From the NCBI GenBank assembly GCA_000182565.2, contig KQ257457.1: DNA of 64,000 bases; one strand, given 5' to 3'. Position 1 is the first letter of the stretch; each line of letters begins with the position of its first letter. The DNA is from Spizellomyces punctatus DAOM BR117. Taxonomy: Eukaryota. A program made the position numbers and the translations under genes. Shown here piece by piece: positions 3,935 through 60,284 of this stretch. The notes beneath the pieces were generated by a model. It was given only the letters and a program-made list of their open reading frames with translations. It was not told the origin of the DNA and ran no database searches.

Positions 3935-5785
3935 TCACTGCTCCGCGTCAAACGCTGGCAACGCATTCGGTGTACCCCGCACCATGCCCACAAACCCGTA
4001 AATATCCGGGCTGCTCATGCTCCTCCGCATCCAGCTGTTGCTCCGTTTGTGTCCGGGCATGGGATTTGGGGCTGGTGAAGAGATATCCGCCGCAGGAGGT
4101 AGAGACGCCATGTCCAGAATGGATGCGGGATGCTGCGAAAAGGTGCTGTATCCATTGAACAGTTCATCTTCGGTGATGGTCGTCAATTGGAGTTGTTCGA
4201 GCGAGTTTGTGGTAGAATTGAGGAGCTCATGGTCCAGGTTGAGCGGAGTAGAAAGAGTCAATTGGGTTTGCTGCTGGGTCTCCCATGTTGGGTGAGAGTA
4301 GGACGGGTTGGACAGCATGTCGGCCGGTGCGTCGGTAGACGTTACATACTCATCCATATGGAGCGGCTGGCAAAGAGTCGGAGCAGATTGGTTCGGATCG
4401 CTTTGAGCTTGTCCGTTAAAGTACTCGTTGGAATCACCAGGGAGAACAGACTGGATCAACGGCGGTGATTGTTGTTGCTGTTGTTGGATGTGGAGGAGAT
4501 GAAGGTCCAAAGCGCCAGGGTTTACGGCATCTTGCATGATGGTGCCCTCATGAATGTCTGATAGAGGAGATCCTGGAATTCTTCCTTCGCCATTTGGGTA
4601 TATGACGCGACCGGAAGGTACCTGCTCAAACACAGAGTGTCTTCTGCTCACCATCCGCGAAGGAAAGTACGGATGATGTGCATGCTTGACAGACGGACTC
4701 GATGTTCGAGGGGCGGCAAAGTAGGTTGTTTGCAGAGCCGGGGACGCATTTGGAGTTCGTAGTAAACTGGGACGGCGGGTAAAGGATGGAGAGGGCGGAT
4801 TGGAAAACGTGGGACTGGGCGGTATGGGAGGAACGTCCGTGATGCAGTCACCGCAGTCGATCGAGTTGTGGCGTGACATCATGTGCGGGAGCGGTAGCGA
4901 CACATGAGAGGAAGCTGGCGACGGATATCCCGGAGTCGCGGTGTCGGGATGATGAATATTTGGTAGGGAATTGTGTCGGGCAAGGTTGGGATTAGCAGCC
5001 ACGTTTTGCGGGCCAAGGTATCCGTTGTTGCTCGTCGTACGGAGCCGTTGCACTGACCGCGGCGCCTTTGTGCTGAGTGGGCTGCTAGCAACGATCGCAG
5101 CCTGCGAAGCCGGATCGTCGGATTCATCGTGCAGAGGGGCGTCGTTTGTTGGCGCCAGTTCCATTTTGACGGAAGCATCATCCGCGCTGTTCAAGACAGC
5201 AGAGGATAGAGGCGGGCTCTGCAAGAATGCAGTGCGTTCAAGCAAGCCAGCGGCCGAACCTCGCTTTTGGTCCAACTTCATCTTTGCACGACGATTCTGA
5301 AACCAAACCTGGACAGCCCTGCTTGTCATTCCAAGCTTTTCTGCAAGGGCCGTACGCACAGCGGCGCTTGGCATGGGATCCTGAGCAAACGCCTGTTGCA
5401 AAACGTTGAGCTGAGTCGTTGATGTCCGCACTCGTTTCTTTTTGGGCATTGTCTCTTCCCTAATGATTTGCTCTTTGACAGACTCGACAGTTGCATTAAT
5501 GAAGCGCATGCCGCCGCCTTCTTCAGCACCAGACTCGGGTGACGTGCTCTGAGGACGAACGATGCCTTCACGCCCATCCATATAGTATGCTACGCCATGG
5601 AGGGCCGGGTCCATTCCATACTCTGTCACCGCCGATAGAGGTGAGAGGAGATTGGGCGAGAGGGGCGATTGCACTGGCGAGTAAGCAACAGGAGCACTCA
5701 TGGGACCTGGCCCTTGGTTGACATTGTATGCAGGCAGGGCCAGGGTCATGGCGGGCCTATGGCGGCGCTCGTGGAGGTAGGCCAT
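3935..5785 (-). CDS. Homeodomain transcription factor (intronless)
   Basis: KKKRVRTSTTQLNVLQQAFAQDPMPSAAVRTALAEKLGMTSRAVQVWFQNRRAKMK, with helix-3 WFQNRR (Q50). Flanks are long S/P/Q-rich low-complexity sequence. First ATG at 5785. Confidence 0.93.
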   Translation of the reverse strand: MAYLHERRHRPAMTLALPAYNVNQGPGPMSAPVAYSPVQSPLSPNLLSPLSAVTEYGMDPALHGVAYYMDGREGIVRPQSTSPESGAEEGGGMRFINATVESVKEQIIREETMPKKKRVRTSTTQLNVLQQAFAQDPMPSAAVRTALAEKLGMTSRAVQVWFQNRRAKMKLDQKRGSAAGLLERTAFLQSPPLSSAVLNSADDASVKMELAPTNDAPLHDESDDPASQAAIVASSPLSTKAPRSVQRLRTTSNNGYLGPQNVAANPNLARHNSLPNIHHPDTATPGYPSPASSHVSLPLPHMMSRHNSIDCGDCITDVPPIPPSPTFSNPPSPSFTRRPSLLRTPNASPALQTTYFAAPRTSSPSVKHAHHPYFPSRMVSRRHSVFEQVPSGRVIYPNGEGRIPGSPLSDIHEGTIMQDAVNPGALDLHLLHIQQQQQQSPPLIQSVLPGDSNEYFNGQAQSDPNQSAPTLCQPLHMDEYVTSTDAPADMLSNPSYSHPTWETQQQTQLTLSTPLNLDHELLNSTTNSLEQLQLTTITEDELFNGYSTFSQHPASILDMASLPPAADISSPAPNPMPGHKRSNSWMRRSMSSPDIYGFVGMVRGTPNALPAFDAEQ

Positions 5786-5874
5786 GGTTTTTGTGTGTAT
5801 CAATAATCCACCACTACGGGAAATGAAAGCAGCCTAGGGACCGTTGATAATGCAAAGAGAAATGTTGCGTTTTG

Positions 5875-5912: not shown

Positions 5913-7816
5913 ACAATGCGTGCTTTTCCTGGAGGCGTTCCTTGATGCGTGAAGAAAACAAAAAAACCCAATCTCGAAAAAGGGGAGCCCAGCAGTGCAA
6001 AACGGCGGGAGGGGACGGCAAGCGGCGGCAGCGTGTGTGAGTGTGCAAAAGCGACCAGCGCTAAAAAAAATTGAACAAGCCGTGAACAAGACTAGGATGA
6101 AAAGGACGATGCGTGCGGGGGTTGATGCTGTGACGACGACAAACGACAAACGACGAACGACGACGACAAGAAAACGAGGGGGAAGGAGGCAGAAAGCTGT
6201 TCTAAAATAAAAAACAGGCGGAAACGACGACGAAAAAGACGCAAGGCGAGCCGTGGCTAAAGGTTGCACTTTACATTGCATTCCATTCCATTGTGTGATT
6301 CGAGTCATAGTACTGCAAGTGTAGAATGGTGTGAATGCATGAGTACCATTAGAATGCAATAGAATGCAATGTGATGAAACCTCTGCAGCCAAAATCTACA
6401 ACAAAAGAGCCAAATTTGAATGTCCATCAAATCACAAGACGAGACAAAAAAAAGTTGGAAATCTGTTCAACTTGCCGTTTGCGTTAAAATGTTTTTTTTT
6501 CACTTTTGGACAGAGCTTTGGGGGTAAGATATGAGCATTTGGGATATTTGAGATATGCGAATATAATGCATGGAATGGATATGCGAATGGAATTAATGTT
6601 GATGTGTCGTATGGCTGCCATATGGGCTGCCATATGGATGTCGTATTGCGTATTATATGGATTAATGTTATTCTTCTTGGTGATGGTCTCATCCGCATCA
6701 AAGGGCGGTTGTAATTGGTTGGATAGACTGTTTGTAGTCGTTTCTGAATCTGTCGATACGTTCAACCCATTTTGACCACTCGCTCCGTCTCTCTGCATCC
6801 TCTCCAATGGCATTACTCGCTATTGCATGCACCATTTGCAATGCATCATGTCTTTTATCGCATATTTCATCCATATTTTTTTGCATCCAAAATATCCCTT
6901 TTTATTATTCCCTCCTTGTTTTTGCCGTGTGGATGAGCGGCGCGGCAAGGCTTGTCGCTGAGGAGGTTTTGGGCGCACAAAACGGAACTTTTCCCTCCCC
7001 CCAGCCGGGCCACAGGCGGGGCCACAGGCTGCCACGTGTTTATCAATACTCACGTGGATCTGCTTACGCAAAAGCGGAGGTTTGGTTCTTTTGAACAAGG
7101 CTCCGCAGATATCCCGCGGGACAGGTTTTTAACAAGGTTAACACTCGTCAAAGGCATCCTTTGTTCCTTGGAAATCTTTTGTTGAGAACGGTTTGGGACG
7201 AGGTCCAACGTTCAATTGGCTGCACCTTTCCAGAAATGAAAAGTCATCCTTTTTTTCCTTGCTCATCCGCAGAGGAAAAATAAACAAAAACATACATGAC
7301 AACAAAATGTCACCTAGAATAGATGTCCGATCATCATAAAATCCAATGGCTCAATTCCAAGAATAGAAACATCGAGTCATCAACTACCAACACGATCCAT
7401 CTGTCGCGACTATAAATACGCGCAACAACGCGTTCATAATAAACAATAGCGATCGCTTAGAAGGGGGCTTTCCAGATGGCACATCCAATCGCCTTTCTTC
7501 GTTTACCCAAACAATGAGCGTCCAGACAAACATCCTATTGGTCAGAATGGTTAGAAACGCAACGAAACCCGCAAGCAGACGAGGCCCAACAATGCGACGA
7601 AAATAACAACAATTATGTTTTTGCCACTCTTGTTTTTCTGCTTGGCCCCTCCCATGACAATAGACCTATATAAGCTCTTGGCCCACCATCCCTGTCCCTC
7701 TTTTGGTTTCGCGCTCGTGTTGTTTCGTAAGTTTTACGGGGAATAACCTTCTATAGAGAGAGAGAGAGAGAAAGCCCAATACCCCATACCATACCGGGCT
7801 GTTCTTTAACGCAAAA

Positions 7817-10800
7817 ATGCCGTCCTTCCGCACTGGCTGGGGGTTGGCCCTCACCGCCCTCCTAGCCCTTCAAACAGTAACAACCACAGTCAATGCCGCT
7901 AGTACTACTTCCACCAAGGCTGCCGCCACGACCACTGCCGCCGCCTCTGGCTGTACCACCCGTGAGGTGCAGCGATATACCTCGACCGACTTTCTCTTTT
8001 TGATCGATGCTAGTGGTTCCATGTGTCCCTACATTGACCAAATCACGGGTCGCATGCAAAGCTTTGTGACTGCTCTTAAAAACAAAAACGTTACCGACGC
8101 ACGGTTTGCCGTTGCAGCTTTTGGTGATCAGCCTATCCTGTTGCAACCTTTTACGGTATGTTATCTAGTCTGATGTTTTTGAGAATACGCTGCATCAAAT
8201 TGCTCACTCTTCTTGTTTTCAACTGACAGTCTGATACCGCCGCAACAACAGCCACGCTGGGCAACATTGGTTGTAAGCGTGGTGGTCAGGAAGCCAGTTT
8301 CGAAGCGTTGCGTATGGCGTTTGCTGGCAACGATGGTGCAGACTTTTTGTCGGGATGTGCATCCGGTACAACATGCAAACTGACCTGGCGATCCGGCGTG
8401 ACCAAATCCGTCATCATGGCTACGGACGAAGACAGTGACCTTCCGACTCTGGCCAAATACCGGATGACGGGCCAGTCAAGCTCCAACTCGCTTTGTGCTA
8501 ACGGATACTGGTGGTACATGTGCGGTGCTCAATTTGAGCCCAACTTTAGTCCCAAGAGTTTCTGGACTCGGTACAGTCAGTACTACCGTACATCGAACGC
8601 TTCAATCACCATGGAAGACACATACCAGGCTGAAATTGATGCAACTGCCGACCTCCTTCTCGCGAACCAGGTCCAGCTGAACGTGCTGATAAAGTCTGAT
8701 GCCAACGCCAACACTCAGGGATCCATGTCCAGCTACGACAGCAACAGCTTGTACTACACCGAGAACAACAAAAAGGACTTTGACCCCCTTCACACCCACA
8801 CGACCATCATGCAATTCGGTCACCCCGACCTGAACATTCAAAACAAAACTACTTTCCAAAACTTTGACCAACAAGCTACCTACGCTTCCCTCGTTGCAAA
8901 CGGAATGCGCCAGACGCTTCAGGCTCAGATTTTGGAAGGGAACGGTATGATGCGATTGTACAAGCTCCAAGATATCATTGACCCTATCTTGGGGAACAAG
9001 GTTACGGACAGTTTCTTCCAGGCTACAGTAGACATGGTTCAATATTGTCCTCCTGTTGTGTCGGTCATTCCTAGTACTACTTCCAGTGTCAGCACGTCGA
9101 CTTCAGTTGTCCCTGTGGCTACCACCACGACCACGAAGGTGCCTACAACTACCACTACGACAACGACCACAAAGGTGCCCACTACTACCACGACAACGAC
9201 CACAGTTGCTACCACTACTACTACTACGACCAAGGTTCCTACCACGACCACTACTACGACAACGGTCCCAACGACTACTACGACAACCAAGGTTCCTACC
9301 ACGACCACTACTACGACAACGGTCCCAACGACTACTACGACAACCAAGGTTCCTACCACGACCACTACTACGACAACGGTCCCAACGACTACTACGACAA
9401 CCAAGGTTCCTACCACGACCACTACTACGACAACGGTCCCAACGACTACTACGACAACCAAGGTTCCTACCACGACCACTACTACGACAACGGTCCCAAC
9501 GACTACTACGACAACCAAGGTTCCTACCACGACCACTACCACAACAACGGTTCCTACCACAACAACGACTACTACTACAACAACGGTTCCTACCATGACA
9601 ACCACCACTACAACAACGGTTCCCACAACAACTACAACGACGACCACAGTAGAAACCACTACAACGGTGCCCACAACAACAACTACTACTACCACTACAG
9701 TAGAGCCCACCACAACTGTTGAGACCACCACAACGACTCTGGAGACAACAACAACCACAACAACCGTTCCAGAAACGACAACCACAACCACAACAGTTGA
9801 GGAAACGACCACTACGACCACTGTGGAGGAGACTACCACTACTACTACTACCGTTGAGCCCACTACAACCGTCGAGGAAACTACCACGACTACTACTGTT
9901 GAGCCCACTACCACTGTTGAAGAGACTACCACTACTACAACAGTTGAGGAGACCACTACTACAGTTGAACCTACCACGACCGTTGAGGAGACCACTACTA
10001 CCACTACAGTTGAACCCACCACAACCGTTGAAGAGACCACCACAACAACCACTGTGGAGGAGACAACTACTACTACCGTTGAGCCAACCACAACCGTAGC
10101 TGAGACCACAACTGTTGAACCTACAACGACTGTCGAAGAGACCACCACTACCACAGTTGAGCCAACAACAACCGTGGAGGATACTACCACTACTGTCGAG
10201 GAGACCACGACGAAACGGTTGAACCTACTACAACTGTCGAGGAGACACTACCACATCGTTGAACCTACACCACTGAGAAGAGACCACTACTACAACGTTG
10301 AGGAGACACTACACAGTGTGAACCTACTACAACCGTTGAGGAGACGCTACACGACTGTTGAACCTACGACATCGTCGAATAGACTACCACACTACGTGCG
10401 AGGCTGACAACACTGTCGANNNNNNNNNNNNNNNNNNNNNNNNNNNNNNNNNNNNNNNNNNNNNNNNNNNNNNNNNNNNNNNNNNNNNNNNNNNNNNNNN
10501 NNNNNNNNNNNNNNNNNNNNNNNNNNNNNNNNNNNNNNNNNNNNNNNNNNNNNNNNNNNNNNNNNNNNNNTGTTGAGCCAACCACACACGGTGAAGAAAC
10601 TACCACCAACTGTTGAGCCCCCCACAAACGTTGGAGAGACTACCACCACAGTAGAGCCTACTACGACCGTTGAGGAGACAACCACCACAACCGTTGAGCC
10701 AACAACAACAGTTGAAGAGACCACCACTACAACAGTCGAGGAGACCACAACCGTTGAGCCAACAACAACAGTCGAGGAGACCACCACCACAGTCGAACCC

Positions 10801-12390
10801 ACCACAACAGTAGCTGAAACAACAATCTCAACCGTCATCGATGAGACCACCATCATCTCCACTATTGAACCTACTACAACAGTCGAGCCCACTACTACGG
10901 TCGCTGAAACAACAACCGTCGTTGATGAGACCACCATCATCACAACCGTGGAACCTACCACAACCGTTGAGGAGACTACCACTACGACTGTTGAAGAGAC
11001 TACTACCGTTGAGCCAACCACAACCGTTGAGCCCACAACTACTGTAGCTGAGACCACAACTGTTGAGCCCACTACGACTGTTGAGGAGACCACAACCGTT
11101 GAGGAGACTACTACCGTTGAGCCAACCACGACCGTAGCTGAGACTACTACCACGACTGTTGAGGAGACCACGACGGTTGAGCCAACCACAACTGTTGCTG
11201 AGACCACAACTACCACCGTAGAGGAGACCACAACTGTTGAGCCCACAACTACAGTTGCTGAGACCACCACAGTTGAGCCCACCACGACTGTTGAGGAGAC
11301 TACAACTACAGTTGCTGAGACCACAACCGTTGAGCCAACCACGACCGTAGCCGAGACTACTACCACGACTGTTGAGGAGACTACCACCGTCGAGCCAACC
11401 ACAACCGTGGAGCCCACAACTACCGTAGCTGAGACCACAACTGTTGAGCCCACTACGACTGTTGAGGAGACCACAACTGTTGAAGAAACCACCACCGTTG
11501 AGCCTACTACCACAGTAGCCGAGACCACCACGGTTGAGCCCACTACGACTGTTGCTGAGACCACCACTGTTGAGGAGACTACTACCGTTGAGCCCACTAC
11601 CACAGTAGCTGAGACCACAACTGTTGCTGAGACTACCACGGTTGAGCCCACCACAACGGTTGAAGAGACCACCACGGTTGAGCCCACTACCACAGTAGCT
11701 GAGACTACCACAGTTGCCGAGACCACCACCGTTGAGCCCACCACAACTGTTGAAGAGACCACCACGGTTGAGCCCACTACCACAGTAGCTGAGACCACCA
11801 CGGTTGCCGAGACCACCACCGTTGAGCCCACCACAACTGTTGAAGAGACTACTACTGTTGAGCCTACTACCACAGTAGCTGAGACCACCACGGTTGAGCC
11901 CTCCACAACTGTTGAGCCCACTACGACTGTTGAAGAGACTACCACAGTTGAAGAGACCACCACCGTTGCTGAGACTACAAGCGTTGAGCCCACAACAACC
12001 GTCGACGTCCCAAGCACAACAGTTCAACCCACAAGCACAATGGACGCAACAACAACCTCAGCACTCCCGAGCCCCGCCGAAACCAACAGCCCAACTCCCT
12101 CCTCTGAACCAAGCCCATCCACCTCCCCAACCCCAGAACCAAGCGGAACTCCAACAGGAACCTACATTGGAGCCGGAGTAGGAGCAGTAGCAGCCCTAGG
12201 AGCAGCCGGAGCAGGTGCCTTCTTTTACAAATCCCGAACATTCTCGAGTGCAGTCTCGAATGCTGCGGCCGGTGGTAACGCTTTCACGAACGCTCAAGCC
12301 AACCCTCTCTATGCTTCGCCTCACACAATGTACGAGAACCCGCTCTACCAGCCCAGAATTGATGTAGATGCAACGGATGGGGCGATTTGA
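7817..12390 (+). CDS. Type I membrane protein: signal peptide, vWA (MIDAS) domain, Thr-rich mucin-like stalk, TM helix, tail with two NPxY motifs (integrin-beta/Sib-like adhesion receptor candidate)
   Basis: Exon 1 7817-8155, GT-AG intron 8156-8229, exon 2 from 8230 in frame with ORF 8308. Hydrophobic N-terminus; DFLFLIDASGSM (DxSxS); EASFEAL..WRSGVTKSVIMATD; KVPT/VEPT/VEET/VAET repeats across the N-gap; YIGAGVGAVAALGAAGAGAFFY; NPLY at 12301 and 12337. Joining across the gap is inferred from the same repeat family on both sides. Confidence 0.85.
9229..9540 (+). repeat. Coding tandem repeat, 57-bp unit (KVPTTTTTTTTVPTTTTTT), about 5 near-identical copies
   Basis: accaaggttcctaccacgaccactactacgacaacggtcccaacgactactacgaca recurs with a 57-nt period. 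Confidence 0.93.
9640..12005 (+). repeat. Coding minisatellite of 18-24-bp units (VEPTTT/VEETTT/VAETTT), interrupted by an assembly gap
   Basis: Seen directly in the translations of ORFs 8308 and 10573; N-gap at 10420-10570. Confidence 0.9.
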
Positions 12391-12718
12391 TCAAGTAAGG
12401 GTTTAGATAGATTGGTAGTTTTTAGTTTTCGTTAGGTTTTTTTCTTTTTGTTTTCTTTCTAGTTTTTGTTTGTTTTTTTTTGGTGGGGAGGTTCTTTTTT
12501 TTTTTAGTATAGGGTAATGGATATTTAGGACATTTTTTCGATAGAGCTGTTTCTTTGGGATTGTTTATTATCATTTTTAGGTACTTTATGGAATAACATT
12601 TGTTCCTCATTTTGAGGAGTTGTCCATATGCTTTGATTCCTTTGCGTTGTTTGTGGTTTTTATATGGTGCGTTGTTTGTGGTTTTTATATGGTTTTTGGG
12701 ATTTAAGAGATGGCACTG

Positions 12719-13065
12719 TGAGGTGGTCGATTGAACGTGGATCATCTTGAACTGAATGGACTGCAGAGCCATCCGCCTCCTCAAGCACGTAGAAACGACA
12801 AAAGCACTGTACTGCAAGTGGGCAATTTGGATTTGCAGAGATATGCAGGCGGAGGGTGGGCTGGTTCTGCATCTCGTTCTTCCGTCATGAGGTGATCGAT
12901 TGAACGGGATAATCTTGGATTGGATGGACTGCACACTCTTGCCAGGGATGTTACCGCGTCGTCAAGCACGTAGAAACGGCAAAAGCACCATGCTGCAAGT
13001 GGGCAATTTGGATTGCCGAGATATGCAAAAGGGGGGTGGACAGGTTCTACATCTCAGTTCTTCCG
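12719..13065. repeat. Diverged direct tandem duplication, two ~170-bp copies (12719-12884, 12888-13065)
   Basis: Both copies start tgaggtg.tcgattgaacg, share tcaagcacgtagaaacg.caaaagcac and ctgcaagtgggcaatttggatt, and end catctc.gttcttccg. Confidence 0.88.
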
Positions 13066-13411: not shown

Positions 13412-13904
13412 TTATTCAGATTCATCTTCTTCGTCCTCATCATCGGCTGCAGCAGTTTCGCCAGCCTGATACGCCCTCAGATCCTTTTCATATCGGATCT
13501 TGTCATTTTCAGCCTTCTTTTCGTAGAGCTGGTTGGTAGTTGATAAAAGCAGAAGTCATCAGCATTCCTTTTGTAACATTGTAATAGTCAAACACTACAT
13601 ACCTGCTTGTCAGATTGACTAATCTCTTTCCATTCTTGACCCAACAACTTGCCGATCTGGCCTGAATGGAATTTGCAGCATGAGGAAACAATTTGCCATC
13701 GTCCTGCAGTATCAAAAACAATCACATACCAAAAGTAGCGTCCGGGTTCTCCTCCTTTATTCTTGCCCTGTTCTCCTGCGAGAAGAAGAAAAAGGCGGAA
13801 AGAGGTTTCTTGGGTGCATTGGGATCCTTCTTTGCCCGTGTCTTCCGACCGGTCGCAGCCTTCTTGGAGGCCTTTTGGTCCTTTGCTTTAGCTTCCTTGG
13901 GCAT
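13412..13904 (-). CDS. NHP6: Nhp6-like single HMG-box chromatin protein
   Basis: Exons 13904-13730, 13661-13603, 13528-13412. [70 protein letters not shown], then an acidic tail. Confidence 0.93.
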
Positions 13905-14206
13905 ACTAGAGTGTGTATACAAGCCTTGTCTTGTTGTCTGTGCGCGATCACGCGGTGGATCTTGGCCGATGCGAGATGTACAGTCTGGTTGAAGTTGGCC
14001 GTGTGGGAAACGCGTTTCTCGTAGGAGAGCAGCAAGCAAGCAACGCAGTGGGCGAGGAGTGAAAGGGGGGGCCGTGCGTGGGCGCTTCTGCGTGAGAAAA
14101 CGAAAGGCCATTGGACCATTTCCATAAATAGACAAAAGGCGCATTTTCATATATCTTTATATGGATATATTGTATTAGGTAAGCATTCGGACTTTTGGAC
14201 TTACGA

Positions 14207-16271: not shown

Positions 16272-19200
16272 TTACAGTTCACGATGGCCCGAGTCACCAA
16301 CTCCTTCCGGATCAAAGACCATCACTTGTGTTTCCACCGCCTCCGATGCCATGTTATTACTTGCCGTTACAGTGACGGTCACAGTGGCAGTGGCCGCTGG
16401 AGATGCACATACCGGACATGGTGGGCAGAACACAAGGGGACATTGCTGCTTATTCGTTGGAACCGGTGGGAGTTTGGAGGGAACAGGGCAGATTGATGTG
16501 CTAGGAAATGTCGAGAATGGATCTACGACAAACAACCGGAGGATAGCGCCAGTCAAAAAGGCGATGGTGCCGCACAGGAACAGAAAGGTCAGACTGTAGG
16601 TAGTAGACGTCCATTGTTCACTGTGTTCATGTGCTGTCAAGGGCGTTCGTGACGGCGAATCTTCCACAGAGTGATTTTTTGCGCCAGGTTGATTATGCGG
16701 TGAGTCGACTTCATCGCTTCTGAAAGGGGGCGGTGTTTCCATCTTCATCTCACGTTGAGAACGCAATGATTCCGTCTTTGGACTTGACGCTTCCTGTGTC
16801 GGGAAGACGGTGGCAACGGAAGCCCTTCGTTTTCCAGCAGCGGCTAGATTACTTCGCGGAGACAGTAGGCCAAACGTCCCCCCGGTAGGTAGCTGCTTTA
16901 GTATATCTGGGGACGGCGACGATGATGATGCTGGTAGGCTCGATATGCGCAATGGATGCTGGCAAAGAAAACGTGCCGCAACATAAGACAAGAGAAGAAC
17001 GCTACCGCATTACTAATGCACAGTATACCTTCATTTCGATACCTCCTTCTTCTCCACTGACTAGTGAATGAGAAGATTTTGGGCGTCTGCGACTAAACAA
17101 GAAACTCCCGTTGAGAATGTTTTTGGCGGATGCAAGAGGAGTTTGGCCCGCAGACCCCGCCGCCTCGGCCGTAGCCCCTCCAGTGACACTCGATCGAGCC
17201 GTTCCAAAGGACCCTCGACTACAGAGAAAACGTAAGGGTTCGACATATTTCAAAAAGCAGCGCAGGACAATGGCCAACCAACCTAATCTTCTTTCTAAGC
17301 CTCTCCTTTTCCCTCGCACGCAAATCCGCATCGCCGTGCTTGCCTATATGTACTCGTTTGTTGTTTACCATGACCGTAAAAGTATTCTCGCCTCCAACAG
17401 CAGACGACAGCATGCCAGCCACACCAATCTTCTTGGAGCTGGACGCCACAACACGAATCGCACCCGCAAAAGCACAAATGTCCGACGCCGGAACTGGAGA
17501 GTGTCCACGCCGATGCACAGATTCCCACTGACGTATAGCAGACCGAAGCACTCGGACCTTGATCGAATGCTTCGTCACCTTGTTCTTTGGTGTAACCTTT
17601 GTCGTGGCATTACGGGCTCCTAATCCATCTCTCTTTCCTTTCGCATGTAGCCCAGCCCCTCCAGCGGATTCACTTCCAGATTCATACCCGGTACTCTCAG
17701 TCCCGCCATTAGAGCTACCAACGCTATCAGACAATGATGTTGGAAAATGCGTTGCGGAGTGAGTTGGTGGTGGTAAGATTTCGGCAATGTCAATTTTGAA
17801 GATTCTGNNNNNNNNNNNNNNNNNNNNNNNNNNNNNNNNNNNNNNNNNNNNNNNNNNNNNNNNNNNNNNNNNNNNNNNNNNNNNNNNNNNNNNNNNNNNN
17901 NNNNNNNAGGCACAGACTTTACGCCAGCTTCAGACAATTTGGCAGTTTCCCACTTGACGTGATAGCCTGAAGGGTATCTGACAAGATCCACGATAATTTC
18001 CAGCATGAGCGGCGGCTCTTCCAGGTCTTCGGATTCAGATTCTGTGCCTGTACCAGGAGCATCCATCTCCATGTGAAACGTTTCGCTTCTTTGTGGGTGA
18101 TCCGCCAACCTCCCACCTCTTTTCGCGCGACTGGTTTCCGTCCAACCAGATCCAAACTCGAATTCAGCAACAAACTCGTTGCTGCCGTGATCAAAGTCCT
18201 GACTAATCACCCGCAACTTTTCGTGCCGCTGCTCTCCATGTGAGATTTCATCTCGAGCGAGTAATCCAAGAACGTATGGTGGGATTCCATGGCTCTTCAA
18301 ATACGCCTCCACATTTGCGGGATCTTTGGGTGCGCTTCCGACCATGAAGCCATAAATAGCCTGCGGAACCGAACCCCCCAGGTCTACTTGGTAGTACACA
18401 GTGGCTCTTGTAGACGGTATTGGGTGCTGCTGCGTGGCTTCGTACGGATCTATGGGTTCAAGAATCCATCCACCGATTGCAAGTGTCCCTCTAACCTTGG
18501 ACCCTGCCTCTGCAGCAACGGCAGAAAGTATCTCAGGGGATAAGAGTGATTCAGGGACGCTAGTAGCCGCAGTGGCAATCGTAGGTGATGATGTGTTTGG
18601 ATGGATGGAAATGACTTTATCAGCTGATATTGTAAGGAGATCCCGTCGGCTTGTTTCAACGATTAGAAAGTATCAGCGGCCGGCACGCAGATCATATGGC
18701 GTACATGTACTAGTAATTACCTCATGGGGAAAAATCCTTTCATCGTCAAGTATGCCACACGGGTACTCTCTCCACAATACTGCATCTGTTTTCCGTCTTC
18801 CAACAAGTCGTCCCCTAAAATGACAAACTCTTATTAACCAATCGCGCAAAGAATATGAATTCATTTTCATACATACAAATCTTGCGACACCCAAACGCTT
18901 TGATCACGGAAAAGACTTCCTCTGGAGCGAACCCTTCAACCACCTTGGTTCCTCGCATGATAGGCATTTGACCAATTGCCGTGGGTGTCTTGCGGTGAAT
19001 AGATAGTCCAGAGCGTAGTGCCGATACCAGCGTCCAATCACGCGTGGATTTATGCAGCTGCAATAGCTTCCCCAAAGCAGCGTTGCCAGCCCCTCTGAGC
19101 TCCTTATCCTTATCAACCGTCGGTATTGGTTCAGGCACTACAGCAGGGCTGAGAACGCTTGGCATTTCTGCCGAGAGCCCTTCTTCAGCTTCCGCGTTAT

Positions 19201-49026: not shown

Positions 49027-51533
49027 CTACCGCGCGAAATCTGCTGGTAACACCTCCTCCTCCGCCTCCGACATATCCTCTTCATCTTCCTCATCTTCCT
49101 CGGTGTCCAAGCCACTATCCGTCAACACAATGTCCTCCTTCCTCTTCAACATCCGAGTCTGTCCCAAAAAGGACAATGTGACTGTACATGGCCCCTTTTG
49201 CAACCACGGTTCGCCGTCGACTTGCATGGCCACTTCCGATGCATCAATCTCAATTTTCACAGATTTGGCTTGACCGAGGACTGCAGGAGAGGATAATCCC
49301 ACCACGCTGGCACCCAGGTGTAACGGTGATGCCACAGCCAACACTTCCAGTTTTCCATCATTGAACCGGGACAGGGGGTATCCTTCCGCTTCGGCTGCTG
49401 CATAAATCTTGCCTCCCCCGCCGTATGAAGGGATGTTGAGGATAATGAGTGCACCCATGTCAGTCAAATCAATGGATTCAGTGCTCGAGTCGAGATAGAG
49501 ACTGGACGCGGAGAGGGGTTCATGAGCACCTGGTGAGGGCATGGGTGCATCTTCTCTTTGGCGGTCCGTGGGCGAGTTTTCGTCATCAAGGACGGAAGCA
49601 GACGGCTGGACGTTGCGGACAATGCCCAGTAGGGAAAGAATGTTTTTAAATTGGTGTTTTCCTCCAAATAGGGCGTACCAGACTTTGTTTAACAGTCTAA
49701 AGTATCCACGTCAGAATAGGGTAGTGAAAAGCAACCATATGCCCGTATTACCTGTTGCGAAAAAACTGGGGCTGTCGCAATCGGGTGATGTGAAAATCTA
49801 TATAGCATTTAGTGAGCTCAAAATGAAAGGATACTGCCTTATGAATTCATTCGCACCTAGAGCTACAAATGAAAGAGACAAGGTGAGCATCACAAAATCA
49901 TACACATACGACATACGACCCAAAGGCAAAAGACTCACCAACAGAAGCATCCGTCCCAACGCTAAAATAGTTATTCATGACCATCATTTTCGGCTCCTTC
50001 TTGGAAGTGAGATACAAAGCACGTCCCACTTTTTCAGTAGATGATAAGGGAAATTCCTTTTCTGTAATCGTCACTGTCCACCGATCCAATTCAACTTCAC
50101 GCGCACTATCCACATCTCGTACGATATCCCGAACTTCTTCTCCAGCCCATCCGCCACCCCATCCGAGCACACGGGCAAGGTCGTTTCCTGTTCCGAGGGG
50201 CTACAGGCATAATCAGTACATGTAGTGCATGTGAAAAACTCATGTGCGCACATACCAAAACTCCGACAGGCGGTTTCTTCTTCCCAGGTGGTACGACCTT
50301 GTCCAGAATGGAGATGACCCATTGAATGGTACCGTCCCCGCCGCAAACCAGAACCCTACACCGATCAATGACAGGCTCAAAGGCTCTTATCAATGCTTCG
50401 GGATTTTCTCGTGACGTATCCACGACCTAGCCAACATGATGCTTTAATTGCCACCATGGGCCTATTTCTTGCCATGTGAAGCATACCTGAACTGGATTCA
50501 GTAAGGCAAAGAGACCCCGAAGCAATGCAGCAGAGTTTTGCGCCCCCGACGCAGGATTTACGATACACAGCAACGGTCTGGATCCCTCATCTGGCAATCG
50601 AGTCACACTGAACCGCGGGTCACTTTTTTGAGTTGATCCTCTGGAGGCTTTCGAAATCCGTGTGACGAGGTCCGGGGGAACAACGAGATCGGGAAATGGT
50701 CCCAGAGGACATTTGGTTCTATACTGTGTGAAACAGGTTGTATGGACTGTCACGTCGCACCAGATGCATCGCATGTCTTTTAGGGTTGGCTCGCTTCCCG
50801 CTGATGCATAGCATACTTGACATCGGGCTCCCAATGACAGATTTCCTTCGACCCATTGATGAGCATAGTCTCCTGGTGGTGATGGTAATTCTTGGCTATC
50901 TGCTCGCGTACAGTCCTCATTGGATCCTGTGGAATGGATCGAGTCTTTGCTGTGTTGTCGTTTGACGCCCAGAATGCTAGGTAACGCTGTTGTTGTGTAC
51001 AATCGCTTGCACGGCTAGAGTTGCAAAAATGAGTTAAATCATGCTACAGTAATAATGGCATGCAACGGAACGCACCATGTCTTCCACAAGATTGTGATGT
51101 TCCTTGTGCGCACACCGTCGGCACACCAGGCATGTAATACCTTGAACCACCAACCCGCTACACGCCTACAAAGTCGTCAGTTGCTGGTGCTACTCAAAAT
51201 TCTCTTTGAACCTCTTCTTACATTACAATAAGCCGGTCCCTGTCCATGGTCCAGCAACAGCATATCCCCTCTCACCCACACATGTTCGAAATTTCGTTGT
51301 TTGGCGGACGCCGTCCATCGCGCTGTCGCAGGGGTATACGAAGATATTTTGGGAAAATATAAATAGACAAACAAGTAGACACCGGTTGCGATGCCTAGAG
51401 AGATGGCCCACAAGGCGCCCGTGTAGCCGACAAGGGAACTAACGCTTGTAAAGAGGGCCGCGCCAAGTGTTCGCACGGCTGAGAGGATATTGAAACATGC
51501 GGCGAGGAGGTCAATGAATATGGAGAATATCAT
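49027..51533 (-). CDS. ATP-dependent diacylglycerol kinase, DGK-epsilon-like (N-terminal TM, two C1 domains, DAGKc/DAGKa)
   Basis: N-terminal hydrophobic helix; C1a HVW..CNACSG..CLVCRRCAH; C1b HQWVEGN..CQVC..CIWCDVTVHTTC; VNPASG, CGGDGT, PLGTGNDLAR, MNNYFSVGTDA, NIPSYGGG, DGKLEV, MQVDGEPW; acidic tail. Confidence 0.92.
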
Positions 51534-58225: not shown

Positions 58226-58511
58226 AACAGATTGCACAGTTTGTCCGATTCGGACAGCCACAAGGCACAAGAAAAACGACGACGACGACGGGGGAGGAAG
58301 GGGCGAAGTCAAAAGGGAGGCTTTGCGCCATTGCACCCAGGATTTTTTATAAAGGACGGGACGGGTCGGCTTTTCTTTGGTTTTTTTAACGCACGACTCG
58401 AGAACAGGTTTATCTTTTTTTTTTGCACGTCACTGGCTGACGCTCAAACGGCATACATACACATAACAAGGGCTCAGCCATTCATACCCACGGAACGACC
58501 GTTCAACAGAC

Positions 58512-60284
58512 ATGGTCAAGATTGCGGCTCTCTTACTTGTGTTGACGGCGTCGCTGGTGGCCGCTCAAGACCAGCGCCCGCCGAGAAACGGGGAAGGAGG
58601 GAACCAACGCTCTCCTCAACGAAGTGAAAACGGTGGTGGCAGCAGAAATGGTGGTGGCGGTGGAAATAATCGAAACACTGAAGGCCCAGAGCCAAAACTC
58701 TCGGGTCTCGGTCAGTGCACCAACCCCATCGTTCGAAAAGAGTTTCGAGAGCTTACGGAACAAGAGCGTCAGGAATACATTGAAGCAACTCTCTGTCTCC
58801 GCGACCCGGTCCGATCGCCCTCGCGTCTCCCAGGGACCGGAAGTCCCTCTCTTTGGGACGACCTTGTCTATGTCCACTGGCAAGCGACACCCCAGTCCCA
58901 CGGAACTGCCTCCTTTTTGCCCTGGCACAGGCGATTCCTCGGAGTCTACGAATGGCTCTTGAGGTCAAATTGCGGCTACAGAGGTGCTCTTGTTTACTGG
59001 GACTGGTCCTACGACTCACAAGCTCCCGAACGCTCAGAAATCTTTTCACCCCAGTACTTTGGCGGCAACGGTGACCCTTCCAACAATTGGTGCCTTCGTG
59101 ACGGTCACTACAAGGACTGGAAAGCCGTCTTTCCTCCGGAACGTCCTCGCCCTTGCATCTCGCGCAACTGGCGCGGCCCCAACCGGCTGCCAGCTCTCCT
59201 TTCCGACATTGAAATTGAAGAAATCCTTGAAAGTTCCAAGGATTCCTACAACTCCTTTAGGGAGAATGTTGAAGGTCTTCCCCATGACCAAGTCCACGTC
59301 TCAATTGGTGGGGACATGTCCTCCACATCCAGTTCCACCAACGACCCAGTCTTTTTCTTGCACCACTGCAACATTGACCGTCTTTGGGACAAATGGCAGC
59401 GTGAAAATCCCGAATTGGCCAACACCTTTGAAGGCCCTCGTGACCGAAGCGCTCCCGAAGACTTGAACGCCCTCGACACGGACCCAATGGAAATGATCCG
59501 TCTCTACCCCGACGCCCCCGTCCGTGACATGTTTTCTACGACCGCGGGCGACATTTTCTGCTACACGTACTCCAACAGCATTGTCCCCAACTCTGTTTCA
59601 CCCGGCCAAGCCCGCGTGTCACGGCCCAGTCGCCGCAGCCTTGCCGAAGGCTTCCGTGCATGGCGCAACGAGCGTATCGCAAACTTCAACGCTTATTCAT
59701 ACGCTTCCTACCAATCCGCTACAGGTGACTCCCAACGCGGTTCCCCCAATAACCCCAAAACGCCCGACGTCTACGACCGTACGGACCTGTACAATATCCG
59801 CTACCATGAACCCATTCCCGATGACTTTTTACGTGTCCAAATGGGCTACCCCGAATCCCGTGTCCAGGAAATCCGGAACCAAGAAGCTTATTTCACCGAA
59901 TTTGTCGATTACGTCAATATGGCATCTGGCTGGATTTCTCATACCGCCTTGGTGTACATTGAACAAAAGACGGGATGGCGTGCATGTTCAGATGAAGAGT
60001 CGCAGTTGAACACCATGTTGCGCAAAATGTTTTGTCAGAGCATTCATAACGTGTTGGGCAAGCTGCATGTTAAGGCCAAGGATGTTGTCAAGGTGTTGGA
60101 CACTATTGGTGATGTTGTTAGGAATGGTGGGCGTGGCCGTGGATCGCAACAGTATCCTCAGCAATACCCTCAACAGTATCCTCAGCAGTACCCTCAGCAC
60201 GGGGGTAGCGGATACCCACCTCAAAGTCCAAACTACCCTGCCTTACACCCGAGCTTTTATTCGAGTGAGGCGACGCACTGGTAA
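58512..60284 (+). CDS. Secreted tyrosinase (type-3 di-copper protein), intronless
   Basis: Signal peptide; VRKEFRELT; CuA VH..SHGTASFLPWHR; YWDW; CuB PHDQVH..GGDM..DPVFFLHHCNIDRLW; CYTY motif; C-terminal extension with QQYP x4. Confidence 0.95.
   Translation: MVKIAALLLVLTASLVAAQDQRPPRNGEGGNQRSPQRSENGGGSRNGGGGGNNRNTEGPEPKLSGLGQCTNPIVRKEFRELTEQERQEYIEATLCLRDPVRSPSRLPGTGSPSLWDDLVYVHWQATPQSHGTASFLPWHRRFLGVYEWLLRSNCGYRGALVYWDWSYDSQAPERSEIFSPQYFGGNGDPSNNWCLRDGHYKDWKAVFPPERPRPCISRNWRGPNRLPALLSDIEIEEILESSKDSYNSFRENVEGLPHDQVHVSIGGDMSSTSSSTNDPVFFLHHCNIDRLWDKWQRENPELANTFEGPRDRSAPEDLNALDTDPMEMIRLYPDAPVRDMFSTTAGDIFCYTYSNSIVPNSVSPGQARVSRPSRRSLAEGFRAWRNERIANFNAYSYASYQSATGDSQRGSPNNPKTPDVYDRTDLYNIRYHEPIPDDFLRVQMGYPESRVQEIRNQEAYFTEFVDYVNMASGWISHTALVYIEQKTGWRACSDEESQLNTMLRKMFCQSIHNVLGKLHVKAKDVVKVLDTIGDVVRNGGRGRGSQQYPQQYPQQYPQQYPQHGGSGYPPQSPNYPALHPSFYSSEATHW

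Follow-up and report, generated by a model that had tools for sequence, protein, structure and literature searches.

What is a pair of NPLY motifs, arranged much as in the cytoplasmic tail of an integrin beta subunit, doing at the C-terminus of a fungal protein? The pair lies in a stretch of 64,000 nucleotides from contig KQ257457.1 of Spizellomyces punctatus DAOM BR117 (assembly GCA_000182565.2), which was analyzed as a whole and is called the window here, and the tail that carries it is the C-terminus of the product of one plus-strand gene (7817-12390). A sequence-only reading of the window had proposed that the two motifs have the exact spacing of an integrin beta tail and form a PTB/FERM docking module, or else serve as endocytic signals. 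Our best explanation, which we hold to be about as likely as not, is that the gene encodes an adhesion receptor that resembles the Sib proteins and integrin beta, with a tail that would dock talin or another FERM/PTB adaptor. Where fungi lack integrins, the membrane anchor of talin is missing, and such a receptor would be a candidate for it.

Translation of the plus-strand frame that closes at 12388-12390 gives the following features at the 3′ end of the gene:

12166..12228, + strand: transmembrane (TM) helix IGAGVGAVAALGAAGAGAFFY, rich in Gly and Ala
12229..12387, + strand: cytoplasmic tail of 53 residues (KSRTF...DGAI)
12301-12312, + strand: membrane-proximal NPLY, 24 residues past the first basic residue behind the TM helix
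12337-12348, + strand: membrane-distal NPLY, with Y-E before it and Q after it
12388-12390, + strand: stop codon TGA

Positions 11989-12390 translate to the C-terminal end ...TYIGAGVGAVAALGAAGAGAFFYKSRTFSSAVSNAAAGGNAFTNAQANPLYASPHTMYENPLYQPRIDVDATDGAI, and the frame reads ...TYIGAGVGAVAALGAAGAGAFFY KSRTFSSAVSNAAAGGNAFTNAQA NPLY ASPHTMYE NPLY QPRIDVDATDGAI up to the stop codon. The motif coordinates given in the sequence-only reading, the spacer of eight residues with its one Ser and one Thr, and the location of the motifs behind the TM helix all agree exactly with this retranslation; the several small-xxx-small motifs seen in the helix, which is 67% Gly+Ala, come to 9 overlapping pairs on counting. 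The tetrapeptide itself is rare in this DNA. Six-frame translation of the whole window (~128,000 codons) holds 10 NPxY, and the sole pair of them that stands 4-14 residues apart is the one at 12301-12312 and 12337-12348. At this density ~0.004 NPxY would be expected per 53-residue tail, and two in one tail would arise by chance with a probability of ~1e-5.

The family to which the protein belongs was collected with phmmer, using the part of the head encoded by exon 2 as query against 1.84 billion representatives at E up to 1e-3. The search matched 141 proteins, 85 of them at E 1e-10 or better, which is a small family for a query containing a VWA domain. All members with a named organism come from zoosporic fungi (Holomycota) or aphelids: the Chytridiomycota are represented by Geranomyces variabilis, Rhizophlyctis rosea, Irineochytrium, Phlyctochytrium, Podochytrium, Chytriomyces, Polychytrium, Blyttiomyces and two Synchytrium species, and the others are Pecoramyces (Neocallimastigomycota) and Amoeboaphelidium occidentale (Aphelida). 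These proteins are annotated only as hypothetical or as 'VWFA domain-containing'. One homologue, P0147, is a full-length ortholog of 659 residues; the Geranomyces variabilis protein is 54% identical to it, and the Rhizophlyctis rosea protein is 48-49% identical to the window head and to P0147.

When the 141 homologues were screened, crudely, for a TM helix near the C-terminus with a tail of 15-230 residues behind it, 50 passed, of which 25 have a double NPx[Y/F] motif, 9 a single one and 16 none. Inspection by eye showed that seven of the nine single-motif proteins carry a degenerate partner 7-8 residues away (NxLY, NAIF, SPVF, NPLD and the like) and that the other two are false TM calls. The 16 proteins without a motif are, also by eye, mostly false TM calls in truncated models, with P0003 being a derailed model of the ortholog; P0129 and P0138 have genuine TM tails that lack an NPx[Y/F] motif, and P0102, P0141 and P0142 end in anchors of PEP-CTERM-like type. 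The remaining 91 homologues are fragments, models that end in repeats, or multi-domain proteins in which no C-terminal TM helix was detected. Across all 141 sequences, the density of NPx[YF] in the last 60 residues is 20 times that in the rest of the sequence.

Two further observations concern the termini of deposited and bacterial-looking sequences. P0102, P0141 and P0142, and by their C-termini also P0115 and P0117, are bacterial-looking homologues of the head that end in ...PEPxxLxLLxxGLLGLxxRRxxx and have an SLQAQVL-like stretch in common, so that relatives of this type of head may exist in bacteria. Deposited chytrid gene models P0153, P0154, P0036 and P0013 have odd C-termini rich in His, Tyr, Asp and Asn, and these look like Thr repeats translated out of frame. 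If they are, the true TM helices and NPxY tails of these proteins are missing from annotation and the family is therefore under-counted.

Conservation within the tail was assessed by aligning 25 segments that span TM helix and tail, from which P0061 and P0063, with double motifs in long tails of 194 and 177 residues, were excluded. The Asn and Pro of both motifs are invariant in all 25 tails, although these are 18-62% identical over TM plus tail. At either site the form NPLY is found in 20 of the 25, and the first motif lies 21-27 residues past the first basic residue behind the TM helix in every tail. The residue before the distal motif is Glu in 18 tails and Asp in 3, and the residue after it is Glu in 15 and Gln in 6. 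At least five small-xxx-small pairs are found in 15 of the 25 TM helices, so this trait is common, not universal. The proposal that the motifs form a docking module, which absence of conservation among homologues would have undermined, is thus not refuted on this point, since the double NPxY recurs in P0147 and in the 25 homologues that passed the TM screen with both motifs; given this conservation and the low probability from the window density, we regard the NPLY pair as real and not a product of chance. The 'exact integrin-beta spacing' stands for the window tail itself, with its eight residues, and fails as a family constant: spacers in the 25 double-motif homologues measure 7 residues in 12, 8 in 10, 10 in 2 and 11 in 1. 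Because 7 and 8 are both common, the double motif is a conserved module for which 'exactly 8' is no rule.

The ortholog P0147 has the tail NPLY-QNPHQVFD-NPLY, 62% identical to that of the window over TM plus tail, so that NPLY-x8-NPLY-QPR is kept though the sequence of the spacer differs. When the window tail alone was used as query, this ortholog was the only protein found. A profile built from the 25 tails (8000 candidates scored) returned 9 proteins, all with the same tail type and none a Dictyostelium Sib, which is weak evidence of absence. Among these finds P0148-P0150 share the spacer of eight residues with the window and P0147; they come from one organism, in which a near-identical tail (...NVFE[DE]NVGMENPLYEGxxGQNENPLYEAN...) is carried by multi-VWA proteins with an adhesive beta-helix domain and, in P0150, by a leucine-rich-repeat (LRR) ectodomain. 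Since the same tail occurs on multi-VWA and LRR ectodomains, it behaves as a portable cytoplasmic module. A look-up of P0147 in the ESM Atlas gave no usable match.

The gene that ends in this tail was modeled as follows:

7817..8155, + strand: exon 1 (113 codons), with the ATG, a hydrophobic N-terminus resembling a signal peptide (MPSFRTGWGLALTALLALQ...) and the first VWA strand and helix; from translation, Pfam VWA_2 and RNA contigs
8156-8229, + strand: intron of 74 nucleotides, GT..AG, inside the VWA domain; spliced out in RNA contigs
8230..9054, + strand: rest of the globular head, a VWA core with insertions, ending QYCPP; from an AlphaFold2 (AF2) model and homologues
9055..12165, + strand: mucin-like stalk of Thr-rich tandem repeats, TTTTTTKVP and then TTTVEE / TTTVEP / TTTVAE; from translation
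10210..10570, + strand: apparent assembly defect inside the stalk, with the frame lost from ~10210 and 151 N at 10420-10570; from translation and sequence

The signal peptide was assigned by eye, and the N-terminus continues ...DFLFLIDASGSMCPY... into the start of the VWA domain. In two RNA-seq runs of a single study, both of them root metatranscriptomes, contigs cover both exons at at least 99% identity and join 8155 to 8230 precisely, from which it follows that the gene is transcribed and spliced as modeled. The junction is also collinear with P0147, which has no intron. Just ahead of the start codon stands a (GA)n run (7746-7783), and the RNA contigs appear to be cut there.

The reading frame breaks several times from ~10210 within the Thr repeats, in what looks like an assembly collapse. 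Because the repeat types on the two sides are identical, and because the ortholog P0147 has signal peptide, VWA head, a stalk of TTTVEE/TTTVEP repeats, TM helix and a tail ending ...NAFSNAQANPLYQNPHQVFDNPLYQPRA in one unbroken chain, we infer one continuous gene across the defect. The readable stalk amounts to 866 residues, a lower bound, with 56% Thr, 15% Glu, 14% Val and 8% Pro; its composition suggests O-glycosylation. The stalk appears dispensable for the family, since it is short in P0147 (~190 residues) and is replaced by an adhesive beta-helix domain in Polychytrium.

The head is a VWA domain. Pfam VWA_2 matches exon 1 alone at E 6.6e-5, and Pfam VWA is matched in 30 of 42 family members. 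An AF2 model of 8230-9069 has a mean predicted local distance difference test score (pLDDT) of 89.7 and a predicted template-modeling score (pTM) of 0.89, and its secondary-structure elements follow the same order as in the model of P0147, where, with 42 family members aligned, residues 40-385 have pLDDT ~90 or more and the stalk, TM helix and tail are disordered. The best fold matches of the head are integrin beta-I domains. The segments that would form its metal-ion-dependent adhesion site (MIDAS) are:

8006..8020, + strand: MIDAS motif DASGS (DxSxS), followed by Met; faces DLSASM of integrin beta-6
8284..8295, + strand: GQEA, with a conserved Glu at the MIDAS Glu/Thr position; faces the Glu of PEGG in integrin beta-6
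8422..8439, + strand: TDEDSD after strand beta-4, the region of the MIDAS Asp, with a conserved WR before it; faces WRNDS...SDADSH of integrin beta-6

In the family alignment the MIDAS motif is conserved as D 31/31, S 29/31, S 26/31 and M 30/34. The Glu of GQEA, at a position that we take to be a MIDAS ligand in integrins, is kept in 34 of 38 sequences. In TDEDSD the counts out of 40 are T 37, D 35, E 36, D 37, S 39 and D 39, and the preceding Trp and Arg are found in 33 and 34 of 39. Thus, as read from the alignment, the metal-site signature DxSxS...E...D is complete and conserved.

To what extent does this amount to an integrin beta subunit? The family profile aligns with integrin beta-6 at E 4e-7 in two collinear stretches, one in the head and one covering TM helix and tail. 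In the head, DaSgSM faces DLSASM, the Glu of GQEA that of PEGG, and WR...TDEDSD faces WRNDS...SDADSH; in the second stretch the TM helix and ...NPLY-x7-NPLY face ...NPLYRGSTSTFKNVTY. Where beta-6 has the acidic DDD after DLSASM, presumably residues of the ADMIDAS and SyMBS metal sites, the family has C-P-Y. Pfam Integrin_beta (PF00362) gave no match with the window exons or P0147 at E up to 1. It matched 7 of the 42 members, with a best E of 0.0045 and with two scores of 17.2 and 15.1 bits against a cut-off of 24.8; P0002, a multi-VWA protein of 10 repeats, reaches 43.1 bits as a whole protein, above threshold, though no single stretch passes. None of the Pfam families for PSI, hybrid and EGF domains was found in the window exons, in P0147 or in homologues scanned singly. 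By the usual criteria, as applied to these sequences, the family is not integrin beta.

A receptor that docks talin would work as follows. The VWA head would bind its ligand or substrate through a metal-coordinated acidic group, and the glycosylated stalk would hold the head out beyond the cell coat or wall. On the inner side, the proximal NPLY would offer talin a docking site for its PTB-like F3 lobe, in the manner of SibA and integrin beta, and would thereby couple the receptor to actin for crawling or attachment of the zoospore. The distal motif, [FY]-E/D-NPLY, would bind a second FERM/PTB adaptor or serve recycling. The sequence-only reading had named kindlin as the partner of this motif in integrins; we know of no kindlins in fungi, and transfer of that assignment to the window protein is unlikely. 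One preprint describes talin as conserved in most chytrids, with a proposed role in zoospore crawling, and as lost in Rhizoclosmatium globosum (bioRxiv 10.1101/2020.06.12.142943), while a second source reports that basal fungi lack both integrin alpha and integrin beta (PMC5042518).

Several points weigh against this proposal. We infer every protein-protein contact in it, as well as ligand binding and glycosylation, and talin in this species is an assumption. Neither FERM nor PTB domains were found among the 28 neighboring open reading frames (ORFs) of the window. Taken alone, the stretch of the beta-6 alignment that covers the tail falls short of significance (10.2 bits, independent E value 2.1). 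Pfam Integrin_b_cyt (PF08725) matches the window tail below threshold, at E 0.0026 and 17.9 bits against a cut-off of 23.4, and matches none of the 36 homologues scanned singly. The Trp that precedes the proximal NPxY in integrins is absent from the window tail, and no more than 15 of the 25 tails have an aromatic residue of any kind within 12 residues upstream of the proximal motif. Next to the membrane the window protein reads YKSRTFSSAV, with no counterpart of the charged motif of HDR(K/R)E type that integrin beta has there (Kang preprint). Finally, the distal motif fits the [FY]xNPxY endocytic consensus both in the window (YENPLY) and in P0147 (FDNPLY).

This last point leads to the strongest of the alternatives, in which the NPLY motifs are sorting signals for clathrin adaptors or for recycling factors of PTB/FERM-like type and set the surface level of a mucin-type adhesin, with no link to talin or actin. 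We consider it possible but rather doubtful. NPxY is the classical internalization signal of the low-density lipoprotein (LDL) receptor, a textbook case, and the distal motif slightly favors such a function: its position –2 is Y in the window and F in the ortholog, and is aromatic in 5 of the 25 tails overall. An aromatic residue at –2 is, however, not a feature of the family, since it is present in only those 5 distal and in 2 of 25 proximal motifs. Moreover, unlike the LDL receptor, with its unrelated ectodomain, these proteins have two motifs at a fixed spacing: two motifs 7-8 residues apart and 21-27 residues from the membrane exceed what one signal needs, and their geometry mirrors that of integrin beta and Sib. 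Among the 25 tails, Phe stands in place of Tyr in 4 proximal and 3 distal motifs, which suits a sorting signal and indicates that phosphorylation is not required. The head, being a VWA domain of adhesin type, suits an adhesion receptor. Sorting and talin docking are compatible, not exclusive, and for SibA itself the TM helix plus tail is described as controlling sorting in the endocytic pathway (PMC3279395).

The mucin-like stalk raises a second alternative, that of a wall mechanosensor or signaling mucin of fungal type, whose head would stand on a glycosylated Ser/Thr stalk spanning the wall and whose short tail would signal and be recycled through endocytosis. Such proteins are known from yeast as Wsc1, Mid2 and Msb2, and the polarity of Wsc1 needs an NPFxD endocytic signal. 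A stalk of at least 866 residues with 56% Thr, a single TM helix with a short tail, and relatives that are fungal would all agree with a protein of this sort. The family motif is NPx[YF], not NPFxD; the head is of the VWA/MIDAS adhesin type, and no similarity of the head to WSC or other sensor domains was found; and the stalk, which shrinks to ~190 residues in P0147 and gives way to a beta-helix in Polychytrium, is not essential to the family. We judge this alternative to be improbable.

Third, the protein could be a true integrin beta subunit, though a highly derived one, with an alpha subunit as its partner. The collinear alignment with beta-6 over head and tail, the fold matches to beta-I domains, the sub-threshold Integrin_beta matches in 7 of 42 members and the whole-protein score of P0002 all point in this direction. 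They are set against the lack of PSI and hybrid domains and of a Cys-rich EGF stalk (the protein has 8 Cys, all within the 413-residue head), the missing charged membrane-proximal motif, the failure of the window exons and ortholog to reach Pfam Integrin_beta, and the reported absence of integrin alpha and beta from basal fungi (PMC5042518), so that we think it very unlikely. The last alternative, that the NPLY pair consists of chance tetrapeptides in a functionless low-complexity tail, is suggested by the shortness of the tail and its richness in A, N, S and G, but is rejected as hardly conceivable because the pair is conserved across homologues, with Asn and Pro invariant in 25 of 25 tails, and the chance estimate is ~1e-5.

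A wider and more speculative proposal can also be made, which we hold to be rather improbable. Zoosporic fungi and aphelids, standard examples of the loss of integrins, would keep a single-chain descendant of an ancestral talin-coupled VWA receptor that shares its origin, in the common ancestor of Amorphea, with Sib and integrin beta (a MIDAS head of beta-I type, a Gly-rich TM helix and a double-NPxY tail), and this descendant would anchor the orphan talin-vinculin-paxillin scaffold of chytrids during crawling or attachment of zoospores. The family bears on whether Sib-type receptors are an invention of dictyostelids, are older, or arose by convergence. It also provides the question of the talin anchor with a concrete candidate, a tail of 53 residues with two motifs that can be changed by point mutation. 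What would be new here is the lineage and the stalk of a receptor whose kind, an NPxY receptor of talin type with a VWA head, is already known. Searches of full texts, a body without most subscription journals and preprint supplements, turned up no account of a receptor like Sib or integrin in chytrids or aphelids; an aphelid origin-of-fungi preprint mentions none of integrin, talin and adhesion.

The DNA around the gene has features of other kinds. Downstream of it lie a perfect tandem duplication of 25 nucleotides (12643-12692) and a unit of ~180 nucleotides present twice in tandem (12739-13055), with 81-90% identity between the pieces; this duplicated DNA had no Rfam match. Elsewhere in the window, ORFs of diacylglycerol (DAG) kinase type, which encode a C1 domain and the accessory domain of such kinases, occupy 49030-51014 on the minus strand and are of eukaryotic type; to our knowledge this gene type is not usual in higher fungi. 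Other features are:

1750-1822, + strand: tRNA-Arg(ACG)
3938-5833, – strand: homeodomain ORF
13412-14156, – strand: intron-split HMG-box gene
17808-17907: second N run, 100 N
58467-60281, + strand: secreted-looking tyrosinase ORF

How, then, does the family compare with the adhesion receptors that are known? With integrin beta the window protein shares a VWA head in which DxSxSM, a Glu at the position of the second metal ligand, and WR...[ST]DxDS are present, and a single TM helix followed by a tail with NPLY and then, eight residues on, a second motif of NxxY type. It differs in that the stalk is a Thr/Glu/Val/Pro repeat in place of PSI, hybrid and I-EGF domains, and in having no known alpha partner. 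The first NPxY lies ~28 residues from the TM helix in beta-1 and beta-3, compared to 21-27 residues in the family. The bacterial VWA adhesins Mfa5, PitA, PilB and SpaC are anchored to pili or to the wall and have neither a eukaryotic TM helix nor an NPxY tail.

The closest resemblance in architecture is to SibA-E of Dictyostelium discoideum ('similar to integrin beta'), which have the same type-I topology, extracellular VWA domain, Gly-rich TM helix and short tail with two NPxY. By sequence the family is not a Sib protein: Pfam vWA_SIBA-E (PF24909) gave no match with the window exons at E up to 1 and matched one of 42 family members at E 0.029, and P0002 scored 22.3 bits against a cut-off of 27. 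The two further differ in lineage, Holomycota as opposed to Amoebozoa, and in the Thr-rich mucin stalk, with Sib being compared here through its description and the Pfam model only. A survey of more than 100 amoebozoans records no Sib proteins outside Dictyostelia (preprint 10.1101/2020.04.29.069435). Functional studies describe SibA as having a VWA domain, a Gly-rich TM helix and two NPxY, with binding of talin A dependent on the proximal one (PMC9197732, PMC3279395), and as being required for force across talin (PMC12686525). In one of these sources the Gly-rich TM helix is what TM9 proteins act on to deliver SibA to the surface (PMC3279395); dimerization, which had been suggested for the window helix, is thus not the sole reading of such a sequence. 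Taken as a description, the architecture of the window protein agrees with every feature by which Sib is characterized in the literature, and both Sib and the window family are placed in organisms with talin, assumed here for the window species, and without canonical integrin.

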